This document shows positions 17,391 through 52,573 of a stretch of 64,000 nt of DNA, one piece after another. The number at the start of each line of letters is the position of its first letter. Within the stretch, counting starts at the first letter, position 1. This DNA comes from Enterobacteria phage vB_EcoM_IME339: the sequence record MH051915. One strand, 5' to 3'. A program made the translations under genes and the position numbers. Below the pieces are notes generated by a model. That model ran no database searches. It worked only from the letters and a program-made list of their open reading frames with translations, and had not been told where the DNA came from.

Positions 17391-17798
17391 ATGAAACAGT
17401 TGATAATTAAAAGATTGAATTTATTGATATGTTGTTTATGTGTAGTAGTTGCATATGGTTATTACGCAATTAATGATTATATGCATTATAAAGATTATGA
17501 TGTTACTGTAGTTAATACCATTACAGGAACACAAGGAAAAGGGTCTAGTTTATCGTTTATTGCCGTATATGAACTCAAAGATGGTTATAGATTTGGTGAA
17601 TATATTTCCCCAGAGATGTATTCTTCAATAGAAAAAGGTGATAATATTACTGTAAGTTTACGTCCTTTCGACGTAAAACAGACATGGTTTGATAATATTG
17701 TTTGGTTCTTTGGAATGGTATTAGTTCAATCTGTGTGTGGTGCTTATATAGTCTGTTCCATCTTATTCTGTATATTTAGTAAAATTGAAATTGAGTGA
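17391..17798 (+). CDS. membrane protein (135 aa)
   Basis: N- and C-terminal hydrophobic helices; -10-like TATAAT upstream. Confidence 0.5.
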   Translation: MKQLIIKRLNLLICCLCVVVAYGYYAINDYMHYKDYDVTVVNTITGTQGKGSSLSFIAVYELKDGYRFGEYISPEMYSSIEKGDNITVSLRPFDVKQTWFDNIVWFFGMVLVQSVCGAYIVCSILFCIFSKIEIE

Positions 17799-17863
17799 GG
17801 AAAATATGTCAGTAGTAATTAATAATGTCAATGCAGTAATTAAATCTTTAGTTAATAAAAAAA

Positions 17864-18697
17864 ATGATGAATGAATGGACTGTATTTCGTCGTGGAGAGC
17901 CAGATAAATTTTTTCATAGATTTAACCCAACTTTGGATTTGAATGTTATCGACAGAGATGTTCATGCTGAAATTTTAGATAAGTTTAAAGTTGATATTGG
18001 ATTTGGATTAGAAAAACATTTACAGCGAACAAATGGATCTGGAATGAGTTTATCTAATCGCATTATGAAAGCCCTTAATAAAATTGGAGCGTTGTCTCGT
18101 ATTAACGCGAGTGAAATTCTTCGTAATTATAATAAAGGATATGACCTTTATGGTCGACTAATGCCGAAGTTATCATTTGACCAAATGATTGCAGATTTGT
18201 GGGAAAATCAAAGACGATTATTAGCATTAGGCGCTCGATTAGCTAAAGGTCTAGATAAACAAATGATTTTTAAGACCAATAATACAGAAGACCTTAAATG
18301 CTTTAAATTTAGTATTCGTGGAGATGATTATTACATCAGAGCTCACTCTACAGATTATGTTAATATGGGTCATCATCTCTGTTTAGCTTTTGAAGTTTTA
18401 AAAGAAGCTGGAACATTAGAATATTCATCTGGGGCAAAATGTCCTATTGGTTCAAGTTGTATTTTAATTTATCGCCCGGATGAATCCAGTTCAACTACAT
18501 TGCCTACGAAACCTGTACCAGTTCGTAGTAACGAAAAACATTCTGAACAAATTGATTATTTTAATAAACAGATTGAAGAGCTGAATATTTCTATTCAACA
18601 ATATGACGATGAAATTTTCAGACTATCTGGATTGAGTAGTAAAGCTAAATCTGAGCGTGAAAAGTTAATTAAAATCGTTGATTTACTTAAATCTTAA
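17864..18697 (+). CDS. coiled-coil-tailed protein A (277 aa), tandem family member
   Basis: C-terminal heptad segment; first of four adjacent 280-350-aa ORFs of similar architecture. Confidence 0.55.
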   Translation: MMNEWTVFRRGEPDKFFHRFNPTLDLNVIDRDVHAEILDKFKVDIGFGLEKHLQRTNGSGMSLSNRIMKALNKIGALSRINASEILRNYNKGYDLYGRLMPKLSFDQMIADLWENQRRLLALGARLAKGLDKQMIFKTNNTEDLKCFKFSIRGDDYYIRAHSTDYVNMGHHLCLAFEVLKEAGTLEYSSGAKCPIGSSCILIYRPDESSSTTLPTKPVPVRSNEKHSEQIDYFNKQIEELNISIQQYDDEIFRLSGLSSKAKSEREKLIKIVDLLKS

Positions 18698-18705
18698 GGA
18701 ATACC

Positions 18706-19734
18706 ATGAAAACTCGTTCTCAAATTGAAGATATGGTTCGTAATGCCAGCTATACTCGTGATGTTATGACATTTTTGTGTGAAAATAATTTAGACCCTGA
18801 TAAAGTTAATCATGTTATTCATCACTTTAAGTATACAAATAGCAGTGAATGGATACGTAATTTTAGTAAAGCAGGGTATATTACACAAATGACGGCTCGT
18901 GAGCAGCTCACAGATTTCTGTAAAACTATTGATTATAAAAATCCTCTATTTGTTCAAGGCGTTGGTCAAAGTAAGGTCGATTTATCATCTGGATTTTTCA
19001 ATCCAAATCATTATCGTATTGAATGGAGATTTATTGCTCTGTTCCGTAGACAATTAAAGCAAATTTTATCAACTGCGAGTCGATTGAAAGGTTCTGATAT
19101 TAACTTAAAGAACCTGAAATTTGATGGTTATACTCTTCAGATGGAAGTAAGACCATTAAAAGAAAATAACAGAACTGCACGAATTAGCTTTAAACCTAAT
19201 ACAAAAAATTCTCTTTCAATTTGCGAATGCCTTAAATCGCAGTTGACAGAAGCATTTAAGTATATGGATGTTGTTGCTGCAGTTCATTCTAAGATTTTAC
19301 CTCGTTTTGAGCGAAATTGGGAACATACAACAACGTATGAACTTGATATGATCGTTTCATTTAAATATGAATTTTTGAGAAAGGACGAAGTTACACAAGA
19401 GAAAAAGCAAGAAGTGCAAGATAACTTAAATTTAAATTTATCCAATTACTCATCAAACGATCCTAAATGTTGGATGTACAGTTCAAGTAGTACAGATGCA
19501 TGGAAACTTAATAAAGTGAGTTTTCTTCCTACTGAAAATTCAAATTTTAAACCTGTAGAAAAATGGCACGCCGATGCGATTGAGAAGTCTCTTAAAGCAG
19601 TAGATGATGAACTTGTTAAAGCAACTAATGAAATGTTAGAAGCTGAAAAGGTGTTAGAACAAGCACAATCAAGAGTTCAAAATCTGACAAAGCAACGTTC
19701 TAAACTGAACAATGCACTAAATGCACTGAACTAG
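18706..19734 (+). CDS. coiled-coil-tailed protein B (342 aa), tandem family member
   Basis: N-terminus MKTR..; internal ...KYMDVVAAVH; coiled-coil tail ...LNNALNALN. Confidence 0.6.
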   Translation: MKTRSQIEDMVRNASYTRDVMTFLCENNLDPDKVNHVIHHFKYTNSSEWIRNFSKAGYITQMTAREQLTDFCKTIDYKNPLFVQGVGQSKVDLSSGFFNPNHYRIEWRFIALFRRQLKQILSTASRLKGSDINLKNLKFDGYTLQMEVRPLKENNRTARISFKPNTKNSLSICECLKSQLTEAFKYMDVVAAVHSKILPRFERNWEHTTTYELDMIVSFKYEFLRKDEVTQEKKQEVQDNLNLNLSNYSSNDPKCWMYSSSSTDAWKLNKVSFLPTENSNFKPVEKWHADAIEKSLKAVDDELVKATNEMLEAEKVLEQAQSRVQNLTKQRSKLNNALNALN

Positions 19735-19763
19735 TTTACTTTGCCACAAGGATGTGGTATAAT
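19734..19763 (+). promoter_or_regulatory. early promoter with inverted repeat over the -10
   Basis: GTTTAC, 18 nt, 'ccacaaggatgtggTATAAT'; near-identical promoter at 63946-63975. Confidence 0.55.
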
Positions 19764-19791
19764 GTTCTTACTTTCTACTGAGGAGATTATT

Positions 19792-20793
19792 ATGACTCGT
19801 AACGAATATATCAAATCATTCAATAGCGTTATTGATGATAAAGTTAAACCCATGTCTAGTCAGAATGCTGTTCTTTCTATTATCAATCAATGGCTCAGCA
19901 GTATTGATGCAAGTATTGTTTCTTCCAGTAAATTTATTCATGAAGTTCGTGAAATTTCTAGCCGCGTAGATAAAGATGATATTAAGATAACCTTTAAAGG
20001 GTCTCGTCTTCTTTCATATTTGGTTAATCGGGATATTCTTGGTAATTTTGGGAAAGAAATTAAACGAACTAAAGGTGTAATAGGATACAATTGGTTCGGT
20101 GATGTTAATTCTTATCATCTTAATATTAAAGAAGACCCTAAGAATATTTTTACTCGTCGTTGGATTAGTAATTTCAGACTTTTCAAGAAGCAACTTTTAA
20201 AATCAGCTTCTAAATTATGTTATGGTGATTATCGTCAAATTCATCCTTTGGCTTCTGATATGATTATCGTAAAAGAATATGAGCTTGATAAAAATAAAGT
20301 AGCTATTTTTGTGAATTATGAATTTTTTACACCAGAAGCTAACCAAAAGAATATTAATAAATTTTTCTCAATTGCTAGCACTATAACTCATCAATTAGAA
20401 ACGGCTTTGGATTGTATGGAAACTGTAAAAAGTATTCATACATATCCTTTCAAAAATATGGGTGGTTGGGAAGGATATAAAATTGTAATTAGTCTTCGTG
20501 AAGTGAAATGTGCGTACTCACCGACTGATAAAGAAATTTACCAACAAAAATGTGAAGAAATTGTGAATACTCCTAAAGAAGAAACTACCCTTGAGGAACT
20601 AATGGAATGTCTTGACGATTCACCTGAACCGGTAGAAATTCGTCCAGAAGTTATTGCACTAGAAAAAGCTTATAAAGAAGTTCTAGAAATTTCTAATAAA
20701 GCGCAGAAAGAATATGAGCAGGCTAAAAGGATTTGGGAAGAATCTGTTAATCGCCTGGATCGTCTTGAACAAGCTTTACAGTTAATTAAGTAA
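19792..20793 (+). CDS. coiled-coil-tailed protein C (333 aa), tandem family member
   Basis: ORF track 19741 (TTG); ATG 19792 behind GAGGAG; coiled-coil tail. Confidence 0.55.
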   Translation: MTRNEYIKSFNSVIDDKVKPMSSQNAVLSIINQWLSSIDASIVSSSKFIHEVREISSRVDKDDIKITFKGSRLLSYLVNRDILGNFGKEIKRTKGVIGYNWFGDVNSYHLNIKEDPKNIFTRRWISNFRLFKKQLLKSASKLCYGDYRQIHPLASDMIIVKEYELDKNKVAIFVNYEFFTPEANQKNINKFFSIASTITHQLETALDCMETVKSIHTYPFKNMGGWEGYKIVISLREVKCAYSPTDKEIYQQKCEEIVNTPKEETTLEELMECLDDSPEPVEIRPEVIALEKAYKEVLEISNKAQKEYEQAKRIWEESVNRLDRLEQALQLIK

Positions 20794-20845
20794 TTTAAAG
20801 CCAAGGATGGCTCGGAGTATAAATCATTAACCAAGTGAGAAGAAC

Positions 20846-21775
20846 ATGAAAACTCGTAAACATTATATTGATTATTTTGACAGTCTTATTACTAAACACC
20901 GTAATTATCAGATCGGACACAGAGCAGTAATCAATAATATTCTTCGTGATTTCCTTCAATATGTTGGCCAGGAAAATCATATCTGTAAAGATACTCAAAA
21001 CGCTTATTCTCATTCGTTAGGCAATTTGCTTGAATGGTTTAAACGTTCTCGTATGTTATCTTCTACTGTAGCTCGCGATAACATTAAAAACTTTATGAAG
21101 CCAAGCTTCATTAAATCTGCGACATCTATAACCGATTTGGTTGAATTTACTATTGTTAACGATGTTAAAAAGACCCATTTAGCCGATTGGTTATCTACCA
21201 TTCCTGAAACTAAATTTGCTGATAAATTTGCTTGTCAGTTCAATGACCAAGTGAATATGCTTTTTAAGCATGCTCGCAAACTATTTACCGCAGGCGATGA
21301 CCGTACAAATACAGTTCATGTTAAGGATTGGGTTATTGCTGATGAAGTAACACACAAGCCAGGTGGTTCATCAGTGGTAATTAATATCCAAGTTCCTTAT
21401 TATTACTCACGTAATCTTGGCACCATGAACTCTAAAGAAATTAATAAGCACAACAAAACTATTCGTTCGTTGTCTTATAAACTCCGCATGATGTTAAAAA
21501 TCATGGACGTAGTAGAAATGTATGACGAAATCGAAGATAATGGTTCAATGTTATACAGTTCACGTATTCTAATTAAACTGAAGAACCCTAATACATATAA
21601 GACAGTTGTAAAAGAGCCTAAAGTAGAAAAAATTGATAACTTGAGCGAAGAACGTGAATATCTCAATGCTCGTTTGATTGAAGTTGAAGCCCAGATTGCC
21701 GAACACACCAAATTGTTAAAAGCTCTTAATGCAAAAGCAAATGGTTTACGTAATGCTATTGAGGTATTGAAATGA
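20846..21775 (+). CDS. coiled-coil-tailed protein D (309 aa), tandem family member
   Basis: N-terminus MKTR..; ...KIMDVVEMYDE; coiled-coil tail. Confidence 0.6.
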   Translation: MKTRKHYIDYFDSLITKHRNYQIGHRAVINNILRDFLQYVGQENHICKDTQNAYSHSLGNLLEWFKRSRMLSSTVARDNIKNFMKPSFIKSATSITDLVEFTIVNDVKKTHLADWLSTIPETKFADKFACQFNDQVNMLFKHARKLFTAGDDRTNTVHVKDWVIADEVTHKPGGSSVVINIQVPYYYSRNLGTMNSKEINKHNKTIRSLSYKLRMMLKIMDVVEMYDEIEDNGSMLYSSRILIKLKNPNTYKTVVKEPKVEKIDNLSEEREYLNARLIEVEAQIAEHTKLLKALNAKANGLRNAIEVLK

Positions 21776-22140
21776 AAAAGCGTCTATTAGAAGATATTGC
21801 CGAAGCTTCAGATTTTCCTGAATGGACTCCATGCGCTGGGTTTGATAAAGGACTGTTAGTTACTGACGATTTAGATTTTAAACCTCCAGCCTGGGATGCT
21901 ATTATGGCTATGGTTGAACGTCGCGAAAGGGCTTCTAAAAACGTTCCTAATTGTCCTGAATGCGGTACTGAACAGGTTCAATTGATTAACTGGCGTAAAC
22001 CGGAACTTGAATATAAATGCCGTCATTGTAAACACAAATTTAGCAAGCATGCTCCGGAAATGGTTAAATTACCTGACTCTACTGAGTTCTTTAAAGAACT
22101 TGCGAGTGTTCAACCAATGCCTAATAATATTTTGGATTAA
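21772..22140 (+). CDS. zinc-ribbon protein (122 aa)
   Basis: CPECG...CRHCKHKF; ATGA junction. Confidence 0.5.
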
Positions 22141-22385: not shown

Positions 22386-22649
22386 ATGTTTAAAGTATAT
22401 GGTTATGATAGCAACATCCATAAATGTGTGTATTGCGATAATGCAAAACGTCTTTTGACCGTGAAGAAACAGCCGTTTGAATTTATCAACATTATGCCGG
22501 AAAAAGGTGTTTTTGATGATGAGAAAATCGCTGAGCTTCTGACGAAACTGGGTCGTGATACTCAAATTGGACTGACGATGCCACAAGTATTTGCTCCTGA
22601 TGGAAGTCATATTGGTGGATTTGACCAATTGCGGGAATACTTTAAATGA
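22386..22649 (+). CDS. nrdC: glutaredoxin/thioredoxin NrdC
   Basis: 87 aa; CVYC redox motif; T4 NrdC size and position. Confidence 0.85.
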   Translation: MFKVYGYDSNIHKCVYCDNAKRLLTVKKQPFEFINIMPEKGVFDDEKIAELLTKLGRDTQIGLTMPQVFAPDGSHIGGFDQLREYFK

Positions 22650-52087: not shown

Positions 52088-52573
52088 ATGGAAGCGATTT
52101 TGTTTGAAATGTATATTAGCAGTAAAAGTATGTCGTTTGCTAAAGACGTTCCAATTACCGTAGCAGTAATGATTGATAAGGGTTATTGTGACCCAATGTA
52201 TCTCGTAGAAAATTTCGTTTCAATGCCAGTTCCAGAAGATGCTGAAATAAAACTTAAAAAGATTGGTATTATTGAAACTGTACCAAATATTCCGTTTAGA
52301 GCAATTGAAGCATTTACTAAATCCGAATACATTAATGTTAGCGCAGAACAATATAATGATAATCCTCTATCTTTCTATTCGTATGATTCAGTATATAGCT
52401 GGAAAATAGATAAAGGAAATAAATTTATAATTGTGAGTGAAGATGCTTTATCATACTTTATTTCTTCTGTATGGAATAGTTTACATCCAAATTTGCTAAA
52501 AATTCATGAATTTGATGATGCTCCTACTGTTGTTTTAGGTAAAACAAATGAAAGTTCTGAAGAAAATGCTTGA
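52088..52573 (+). CDS. hypothetical protein (161 aa; mrh map position)
   Basis: ORF track 52076; ATG 52088 behind GAGG. Confidence 0.5.

Follow-up and report, generated by a model that had tools for sequence, protein, structure and literature searches.

Divergent paralogs of the anti-Dsr1 gene nrdC.5 in a tandem array of T4-like phages

Among lytic phages, T4 is the standard of reference, and the majority of its ∼150 accessory genes still lack an assigned function. Here we consider four accessory genes as they occur in Enterobacteria phage vB_EcoM_IME339 (sequence record MH051915), in a stretch of 64,000 nucleotides (nt) that we call the window. At positions 17864–21775, four consecutive open reading frames (ORFs) occupy 3.9 kb of the window. 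Are they copies of one gene, and what might a phage gain by keeping several? A sequence-only reading of this DNA had proposed that they are divergent paralogs, each with a globular N-terminal part and a coiled-coil tail, and that the array is an arms-race locus aimed at host factors or defences.

The window is a segment of a Tequatrovirus, a T4-like phage. The array region is 98.6% identical to Shigella phage sb3 and has matches in 655 phage records. It is flanked by nrdC.7 and nrdC.2 within the nrdC.11-to-nrdC cluster, which is transcribed early; gp49 and nrdD lie downstream. All four ORFs were found where the sequence-only reading had placed them, with the lengths in amino acids (aa) that it had given, and comparison with the T4 reference annotation, together with protein identity, assigns each to a T4 gene:

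17864–18697, + strand: paralog A, ortholog of nrdC.6, 277 aa as encoded; phrog_2257, with PF26899 (Phage_T4_Y05B) on its database homologs
18706–19734, + strand: paralog B, ortholog of nrdC.5, 342 aa; DUF7235 (PF23882) and phrog_2351
19792–20793, + strand: paralog C, ortholog of nrdC.4, 333 aa; phrog_1435
20846–21775, + strand: paralog D, ortholog of nrdC.3, 309 aa, of a non-T4 allele class; phrog_1435, with PF26897 (Phage_T4_Y04OP) on its database homologs

Within the array, successive genes are 8, 57 and 52 nt apart, and the last 4 nt of D are shared with the next gene. Close packing had been ascribed to B, C and D; this is correct for those three but too narrow, since A also adjoins B across the 8-nt gap. 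The N-terminal MKTR and the MDVV motif attributed to B and D are both present, with MTR and METV as their counterparts in C. A search of the 64-kb window found no further family member.

Common ancestry of the four genes

Comparison of single sequences recovers one relationship. BLASTP among the four links only C and D (expect value (E) 5e-7, 27% identity over 159 residues). A has no significant match to B in direct pairwise BLAST, nor has either of them to C or D, so that 'divergent' was an apt word. First-pass HHalign also joined C to D (97.7% probability, E 2e-12), and with single-subfamily profiles the A–B, A–C, A–D and B–D comparisons were non-significant. Against a merged C+D profile, B aligned at 93.6% (E 2e-7; B 53–195 on C 68–217) and A at 70% (E 4e-5; A 66–153 on C 63–166). 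Profiles were then enriched in one iteration, each subfamily being extended by members found only with its own hidden Markov model (HMM), and C and D being merged. These gave 96.5% for A–B (E 7e-10), 95.6% for A–CD (E 1.3e-8) and 97.8% for B–CD (E 1.3e-12). Pairwise and profile alignment, which the sequence-only reading had named as its first check, thus bears out four divergent paralogs of like architecture: profiles link all four through their globular regions, whereas BLAST by itself links only C with D.

A MAFFT alignment of 18 sequences from all subfamilies places three motifs and the exact C-terminal end in register. Motif 1 is [FL]-K/R-x-[SAG]-x-[LI]-[ST]-x3-A-x3-L-x-x-[FY], and motif 2 is F-x3-[hydrophobic]-x6-[IL]-L-x4-R/K-L-x-x-G-D. 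Motif 3 resembles L-x2-A-[LF]-x2-M-D-V-V and departs furthest in A (EVLKEAG). Every subfamily ends in L-x2-A-[LIV]-x2-L-K followed by the stop codon. The motif positions are likewise conserved among 32 representatives of the superfamily. In the global search, two bridging sequences matched the HMMs of A, B and CD at once: P0207 at 8e-14, 8e-7 and 1e-4, and P0214 at 1e-4, 6e-9 and 4e-7. The similarity of A, C and D to NrdC.5 is remote (13–27% identity).

Might this similarity be convergent, uniting unrelated proteins that have only a coiled-coil tail in common? The non-significant direct BLAST of A or B against the others would agree with that, as would the best A–B match of the first HHalign profiles, which falls in the tail. 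However, the significant profile–profile segments cover the globular part rather than the tail and are collinear (A 62–186, B 48–195, C 59–217). Reversed-profile controls stayed flat: 22 of them gave P 0.12–0.68 and scores of 12.7–19.2, versus 41.7–94.5 for the significant comparisons, and those run alongside the enriched profiles gave P 0.14–0.52. Moreover, the three motifs align across all subfamilies, intermediate sequences bridge them, and the A and B models retrieve overlapping sets of ∼300-aa proteins of T4-like phages in fold searches. We hold convergence to be very improbable. On the sequence evidence, the four ORFs are diverged copies of one ancestral gene. The sequence-only reading had set its claim against two outcomes, namely no detectable homology, or orthology of each gene to a distinct, characterised nrdC.x gene of T4. 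Homology is detected; all four are indeed orthologs of distinct T4 genes, three of them uncharacterised. Being orthologs of different T4 genes does not contradict mutual paralogy.

Existing family models capture parts of this picture. B matches DUF7235 over its full length (401.8 bits against a cutoff of 30; residues 1–342 on model 1–307), and A, C and D have no match to that model. B is like T4 NrdC.5, the DUF7235 protein, in its position between nrdC.6 and nrdC.4 and in its sequence (92.8% identity); nothing material differs. C, which is 90.1% identical to T4 NrdC.4, and D both match phrog_1435 over their full length (E 3.7e-166 and E 1.1e-116). PF26897 is precomputed on homologs of D and on a C-like protein of the metagenomic contig L014, and its name, Phage_T4_Y04OP, suggests that it covers two T4 proteins. 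The C–D paralogy is therefore already captured by PF26897 and phrog_1435, families without NrdC.5 and NrdC.6. A matches phrog_2257 (E 7.3e-143), with residues 2–277 on profile positions 20–303, the first 19 positions being missing because of a frameshifted 5′ end. Compared with the NrdC.6 family (PF26899/phrog_2257), A in the window is short of 19 residues at its N terminus, whereas in the T4 reference copy it is the tail that is missing. The link of NrdC.3/NrdC.4 to NrdC.5/NrdC.6 comes from profile–profile comparison and intermediate sequences only. The genes themselves (annotated since the T4 genome), the C–D relationship (phrog_1435, PF26897) and the anti-Dsr1 phenotype of nrdC.5 are already known. 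The unification of all four in one superfamily was not found in the databases and literature searched; it appears to be new, and is modest.

Predicted structures of A and B suggest a similar build. The AlphaFold2 model of A (mean predicted local distance difference test score (pLDDT) 75.8) has N-terminal helices, a core at 105–203 and terminal helices at 224–253 and 259–276. Its core runs through helix 105–126, strands 147–152 and 155–160, helix 168–181 and strands 186–192 and 198–203, after which comes a disordered linker. For B the model as a whole is weak (mean pLDDT 53.5), with a core at 102–219 scoring 60–84 and a helix at 286–341 scoring 79–93. Its elements are helix 102–128, two strands, helix 169–185, two strands, a disordered linker of ∼60 residues and helix 286–341. 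An alpha-beta-beta-alpha-beta-beta order recurs in both models, that of B being of low confidence. In Foldseek searches of BFVD, either model retrieved uncharacterised proteins of ∼270–370 aa from T4-like phages of Klebsiella, Enterobacter, Pectobacterium, Acinetobacter, Yersinia, Erwinia and Serratia, and some targets were common to both (for example, Mineola A0A2Z4QAR2).

The coiled-coil tails proposed for all four fared unevenly. A crude heptad score over the C-terminal 50–60 residues was reached by shuffled sequences in 0/200 cases for A, 7/200 for B and 16/200 for D; in C the best window was N-terminal, not in the tail. Tails of this kind are thus tentatively supported for A and B, which also have long terminal helices in their AlphaFold2 models, marginal for D, and not recovered for C by this crude test. 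The C-terminal amphipathic helix probably drives dimerisation or oligomerisation.

Are these proteins enzymes? Searches of Pfam, NCBIfam, PADLOC and PDB sequences found no enzyme domain, with NCBIfam and PADLOC returning sub-threshold noise only. The PDB-sequence profile search matched nothing but coiled coils (SPC42, GCN4, NEMO), each time in the tail, and no solved-structure relative was retrieved. Among the 32 superfamily representatives, conserved positions are nearly all hydrophobic and no polar residue is invariant. The lack of an invariant polar residue and of an enzyme-domain match argues against an enzyme, and the proteins are most likely non-enzymatic.

Public names suggest otherwise. 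Many GenBank and UniRef entries for NrdC.3–6, and even for NrdC.7–11, are called 'thioredoxin', and none has a thioredoxin domain. A thioredoxin or glutaredoxin identity was considered for the four proteins and rejected: they have no such Pfam or NCBIfam match, and CxxC is absent from all four sequences. The actual thioredoxin is NrdC, a separate 87-aa ORF at 22386–22649, and the label appears to be name propagation from nrdC.x. A role in redox or nucleotide metabolism draws its sole support from these product names and from the position beside nrdC and nrdD. With no thioredoxin or enzyme domain, no CxxC and no family-wide polar residue, that explanation is effectively refuted and the least probable of those considered here.

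Variation in sequence and copy number

Is the array evolving as an accessory locus would? The ratio of non-synonymous to synonymous substitution rates (dN/dS) was calculated against T4, SA20RB and Manna, with nrdC.10, nrdC.9, nrdC.8, nrdC.1, nrdC and gp49 as neighbours for comparison. Values were 0.18–0.24 for B, 0.25–0.38 for C, 0.08–0.31 for D and 0.03–0.20 for A, versus 0.00–0.05 for the neighbours. For B and C the ratio is 5–10 times the value of the neighbours, and for D and A less consistently so. Against Manna, C has a dN/dS of 0.77 over the retained 83-residue tail. The gene directly upstream of the array, nrdC.7 (17391–17798), encodes a predicted membrane protein and has a raised dN/dS too (0.20–0.41). 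Mosigvirus carries a gene annotated nrdC.7 downstream of nrdC.2 instead.

Variation is also unevenly placed. Among alleles of B, it is concentrated in residues 21–60 and 181–280, and the core (61–180) and tail are nearly invariant. D is dimorphic, with two allele classes: the window copy is 60.3% identical to T4 NrdC.3, 96–97% to SA20RB and Manna, and 87% to Mosigvirus HX01. Because NrdC.11 in the same genomes is only ∼78% identical between Tequatrovirus and HX01, the 87% for D points to exchange of this allele across genera. The next gene, nrdC.2 (21772–22140), has 57% protein identity to T4, versus 98–100% for nrdC.1, nrdC and nrdC.8–10, which suggests that D and nrdC.2 were replaced as a block through cross-genus recombination. 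A separate observation concerns the tails: the A tail, at window positions 18565–18580, and that of T4 nrdC.3 have a 16-nt exact match, AAACAGATTGAAGAGC (encoding KQIEE; BLASTN E 0.001). This may reflect chance or a trace of exchange between tails.

The superfamily is small. A search of 1.84 billion cluster representatives with its profile yielded no more than 37 clusters at E ≤ 1e-3, mostly proteins of 280–354 aa that match over their full length, and the named members among 10 clusters looked up all came from T4-like phages. A 2706-aa match, P0220, with seven matching stretches, is probably spurious. The copies are distributed as follows:

Tequatrovirus: 4 copies (nrdC.6,.5,.4,.3)
Mosigvirus: 3 copies (nrdC.6,.5,.3)
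Dhakavirus, Gaprivervirus and metagenomic contig L014: 3 copies (nrdC.6,.5,.4)
Jiaodavirus and Moonvirus: 1 copy, just upstream of the nrdC.2/nrdC genes
Karamvirus and an Acinetobacter phage: 1 copy of ∼330 aa at the same position (weaker evidence)

The superfamily HMM found no member in the loci examined of Aeromonas phage 25, Escherichia phage Lw1 and JSE. The intact copy number therefore ranges from 1 to 4, and it changes by deletions and inter-copy fusions. Salmonella phage Manna carries an in-frame A–C fusion at a ...DDEI/EEI... microhomology and has lost B (L004 5215–6252). ACG-C40 keeps A together with a B–D remnant (L015 4305–4716), Pinarejo has lost all of A except its last 47 codons (L016 4501–4641), and the metagenomic protein P0056 is a B–D fusion. 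All four ORFs are intact in most of ∼500–740 phage records. A copy-number comparison had been suggested for a tandemly diversified family, and it shows loss and fusion as much as expansion.

Single-base changes affect nrdC.6 in two records. The first is in the window itself, where DNA alignment identified two features upstream of ORF A:

17806–17874, + strand: remnant of the ancestral nrdC.6 5′ end (first 19–20 codons, MSVVINNVNAVIKSLVNKK...), now a 22-codon ORF; aligned with SA20RB, Manna and T4
17857–17864, + strand: homopolymer A8 run, A7 in relatives, frame-shifting; its last A is the first base of the ORF A ATG

The upstream ATG is at 17806, the first 19 codons are lost to the frameshift, and ORF A restarts at 17864. 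Owing to the extra A in this run, A is N-terminally shortened, to 277 aa versus 296 aa for NrdC.6 in relatives. SA20RB has A7 here, and the Manna sequence differs at this place too. The A8 run may have arisen as an error in sequencing or assembly; otherwise the N-terminal truncation is real. The second lesion is in the T4 reference, NC_000866 (at about record position 52,117, inside nrdC.6), where a 1-nt deletion turns GAGCTGAATATT into GAGCTG-ATATT. The resulting frameshift costs the protein its C-terminal helix, and the annotated product is 275 aa long and ends in MMMKFSDYLD. The T4 annotation of the HIDEN-SEQ preprint gives nrdC.6 as 891 nt (296 codons), so the T4 reference may hold a sequence error or a strain-specific lesion.

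A proposed counter-defence function and its rivals

Published genetics ties one member of the family to a host defence. A T4 clone that carries a compensatory deletion fails to plate on strain ECOR17, and it infects this strain again once dsr1 is disrupted or deleted (PMC9391042; Srikant, Guegler and Laub, eLife 2022). Plasmid-borne dsr1 from ECOR17 protects MG1655 from that clone, and nrdC.5 supplied in trans restores infection (PMC9391042). Dsr1 is a SIR2 NADase; the EcDsr1 sensor is shared with Avs7, and its trigger is a phage major capsid protein (PMC13581612). Transposon data in the HIDEN-SEQ preprint show nrdC.3, nrdC.4, nrdC.5 and nrdC.6 to be non-essential in T4, and the same preprint reports that the neighbouring nrdC.1 inhibits Septu. 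The arms-race locus of the sequence-only reading has thus gained experimental backing for one copy, as T4 nrdC.5 is 92.8% identical to B. A, C and D are, by analogy, candidate immune-evasion proteins. Indirect signs that fit an accessory or arms-race locus are the raised dN/dS, the dimorphism of D, the deletion and fusion variants, the non-essentiality, the anti-Septu activity of nrdC.1 and the internal early-type promoter.

The explanation that we favour, and consider rather probable, is that the array encodes one diversified family of early-expressed, non-enzymatic, oligomeric proteins that bind host immune proteins stoichiometrically and block them. Each protein would begin with a helical region that varies, continue through a conserved alpha-beta-beta-alpha-beta-beta core and a variable linker, and close with an amphipathic helix. 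B (NrdC.5) would neutralise the Dsr1 NADase by occupying its sensor domain before the late capsid trigger appears. Occlusion of the sensor by an early protein is plausible because Dsr1 is triggered by the major capsid protein. A, C and D would do likewise to other sensors or to other variants of the Dsr1/Avs7 type, and duplication, allele exchange and deletion would tune the repertoire to the hosts that the phage meets. What has been observed is the paralogy, the architecture, the non-essentiality and, for the T4 ortholog of B, the genetic effect against Dsr1. From these we infer direct binding, the sensor as the binding site, oligomerisation via the tail and the anti-defence role of A, C and D.

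Known systems offer partial precedents. DSAD1, an anti-DSR2 protein, is said to bind the DSR2 sensor domain. As a proposed functional analogy, it is a phage protein that counters a defence-associated sirtuin NADase otherwise activated by a phage structural protein (PMC10973363, PMC10981675, PMC11087589). No sequence or fold similarity to DSAD1 was found in the searches made with the array. Within T4, the dmd-tifA-adfA 'anti-TA island', the internal proteins IPI–IPIII and nrdC.1 are, like the array, non-essential; they lie in hyperplastic regions, are lost via microhomology deletions, and narrow the host range when lost. Those counter-defence clusters consist of unrelated genes as far as reported, whereas the four neighbours here are diverged copies of one gene.

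Several points weigh against the blocking of immune proteins by the whole family. The phenotype is known for one copy only, the nrdC.5 ortholog of B, and is genetic in kind. The action of NrdC.5 could be an indirect one, through the trigger or NAD metabolism for instance. In the HIDEN-SEQ comparison, insertions in nrdC.3–6 had no significant effect (adjusted values 1.0). The dN/dS of A is low (0.03–0.05) against two of three relatives, and gene-wide values are below 1, which leaves room for relaxed constraint. Finally, the structural comparison draws on predicted models of A and B, of which that of B is low-confidence, and a coiled coil is only weakly indicated in C and marginally in D.

Two other functions have to be weighed with these points in mind. 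The proteins might be host-takeover factors, early dimeric adaptors that bind housekeeping machinery (nucleoid, RNA polymerase, proteases, membrane), in which case the anti-Dsr1 effect would be indirect. The early cluster does lie next to pin, which encodes a Lon protease inhibitor, and other host-directed genes; the proteins have no catalytic residues and are non-essential, and the published rescue is genetic only. Yet the NrdC.5 phenotype is strictly dsr1-dependent, both in ECOR17 and with plasmid dsr1 in MG1655, and rapid evolution, exchange of alleles and frequent loss are easier to reconcile with variable targets than with conserved housekeeping ones. We judge this explanation unlikely.

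Alternatively, only B might act against defence, with A, C and D as redundant or decaying duplicates kept by linkage. The lesions of A would suit such decay (5′ in the window, 3′ in the T4 reference copy), as would the natural losses of A in Pinarejo, of B plus C in Manna and of the greater part of B, C and D in ACG-C40; none of A, C and D has a reported phenotype. But all four ORFs are intact in most of the phage records, and dN/dS values of 0.03–0.38, well below 1, indicate purifying selection. Orthologs of A and C at 42–53% identity in Dhakavirus and Gaprivervirus show that these copies have been kept over long times, and B itself is lost in some phages. A functional role confined to B is slightly less likely again than host takeover. 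The favoured explanation, a family of immune-protein blockers, also has a stronger form that we rate about as low: NrdC.3–6 could be a modular toolkit in which each paralog occludes a different clade of the bilobed Avs7/Dsr1-type sensor, perhaps via mimicry of the capsid surface.

The surrounding locus and significance of the family

Three features stand out between the genes:

19735–19763, + strand: early-promoter-like site TTTACT-17-TATAAT with TG extension, just upstream of C; consensus scan, 10/12 matches
19742–19759, + strand: inverted repeat within the promoter spacer, a 7-pair hairpin with an AAGGATG-containing loop; also flagged as terminator-like
20794–20845, + strand: C–D spacer, with a short hairpin at 20801–20815 and TTTAAA-18-TATAAA

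An early promoter with an inverted repeat had been proposed inside the array, and sequences matching both elements are present. The equivalent site is annotated as a T4 early-promoter-like element in a close relative, phage SA20RB, and from its sequence 19735–19763 would act as an early promoter. Mechanically called starts of ORF C at 19741 and 19762 fall inside this promoter, so the 333-aa form of C is the sensible one; it is preceded by GAGGAG 7 nt upstream of the ATG at 19792. Judged by eye, the C–D spacer resembles the B–C promoter region (19735–19791). The two have in common a TTTA... start, a short hairpin with an AAGGATG loop, TATAAT or TATAAA, and a purine-rich ribosome-binding site. 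B and D also have the start context CATGAAAACTCGT in common (17/19 nt). This likeness of spacers and start contexts is consistent with duplication of a unit made of a gene and its upstream region.

Elsewhere, the locus holds other genes. A small ORF of 62–71 aa, hydrophobic and membrane-protein-like, lies between nrdC.6 and nrdC.5 in Gaprivervirus, Dhakavirus and metagenomic contig L014 (L002 4844–5059, L003 4855–5043, L014 5777–5992). The window has no such ORF between these genes, which are 8 nt apart there. Near nrdC.11, two distant T4-like phages, Aeromonas phage 25 (L010 7782–8840, 12571–14052) and Lw1 (L012 6108–7166), carry genes annotated as nicotinamide mononucleotide (NMN) adenylyltransferase/NUDIX hydrolase, joined by a NAMPT-like protein in Aeromonas phage 25 only. 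These genes resemble the NARP2 pathway of NAD reconstitution. No NrdC.3–6 member was detected in phage 25 and Lw1, so the NAD genes may be another means by which this locus counters defences that deplete NAD.

What would the family mean for T4-like phages? The addition is a modest one to a known family, not a new kind of system, and the earlier functional guess was sensible. The practical gain is modest as well, because the genes, the C–D relationship and the NrdC.5 phenotype were already public. Should the toolkit form prove true, one family would disarm a whole class of capsid-sensing receptors, whose sensor is fused to >20 effector types, and its coiled-coil tail would match the oligomeric state of the receptor. 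More simply, if nrdC.3, nrdC.4 and nrdC.6 are diverged copies of the anti-Dsr1 gene, four 'hypothetical proteins' merge into a single family whose function can be put to the test. With a conserved core and tail, a variable N-terminal region and linker, dimorphic alleles and fusions, the array would offer a natural series for the evolution of counter-defence specificity. It also leads to the prediction that the host range of therapeutic T4-like phages depends on which copies are intact.

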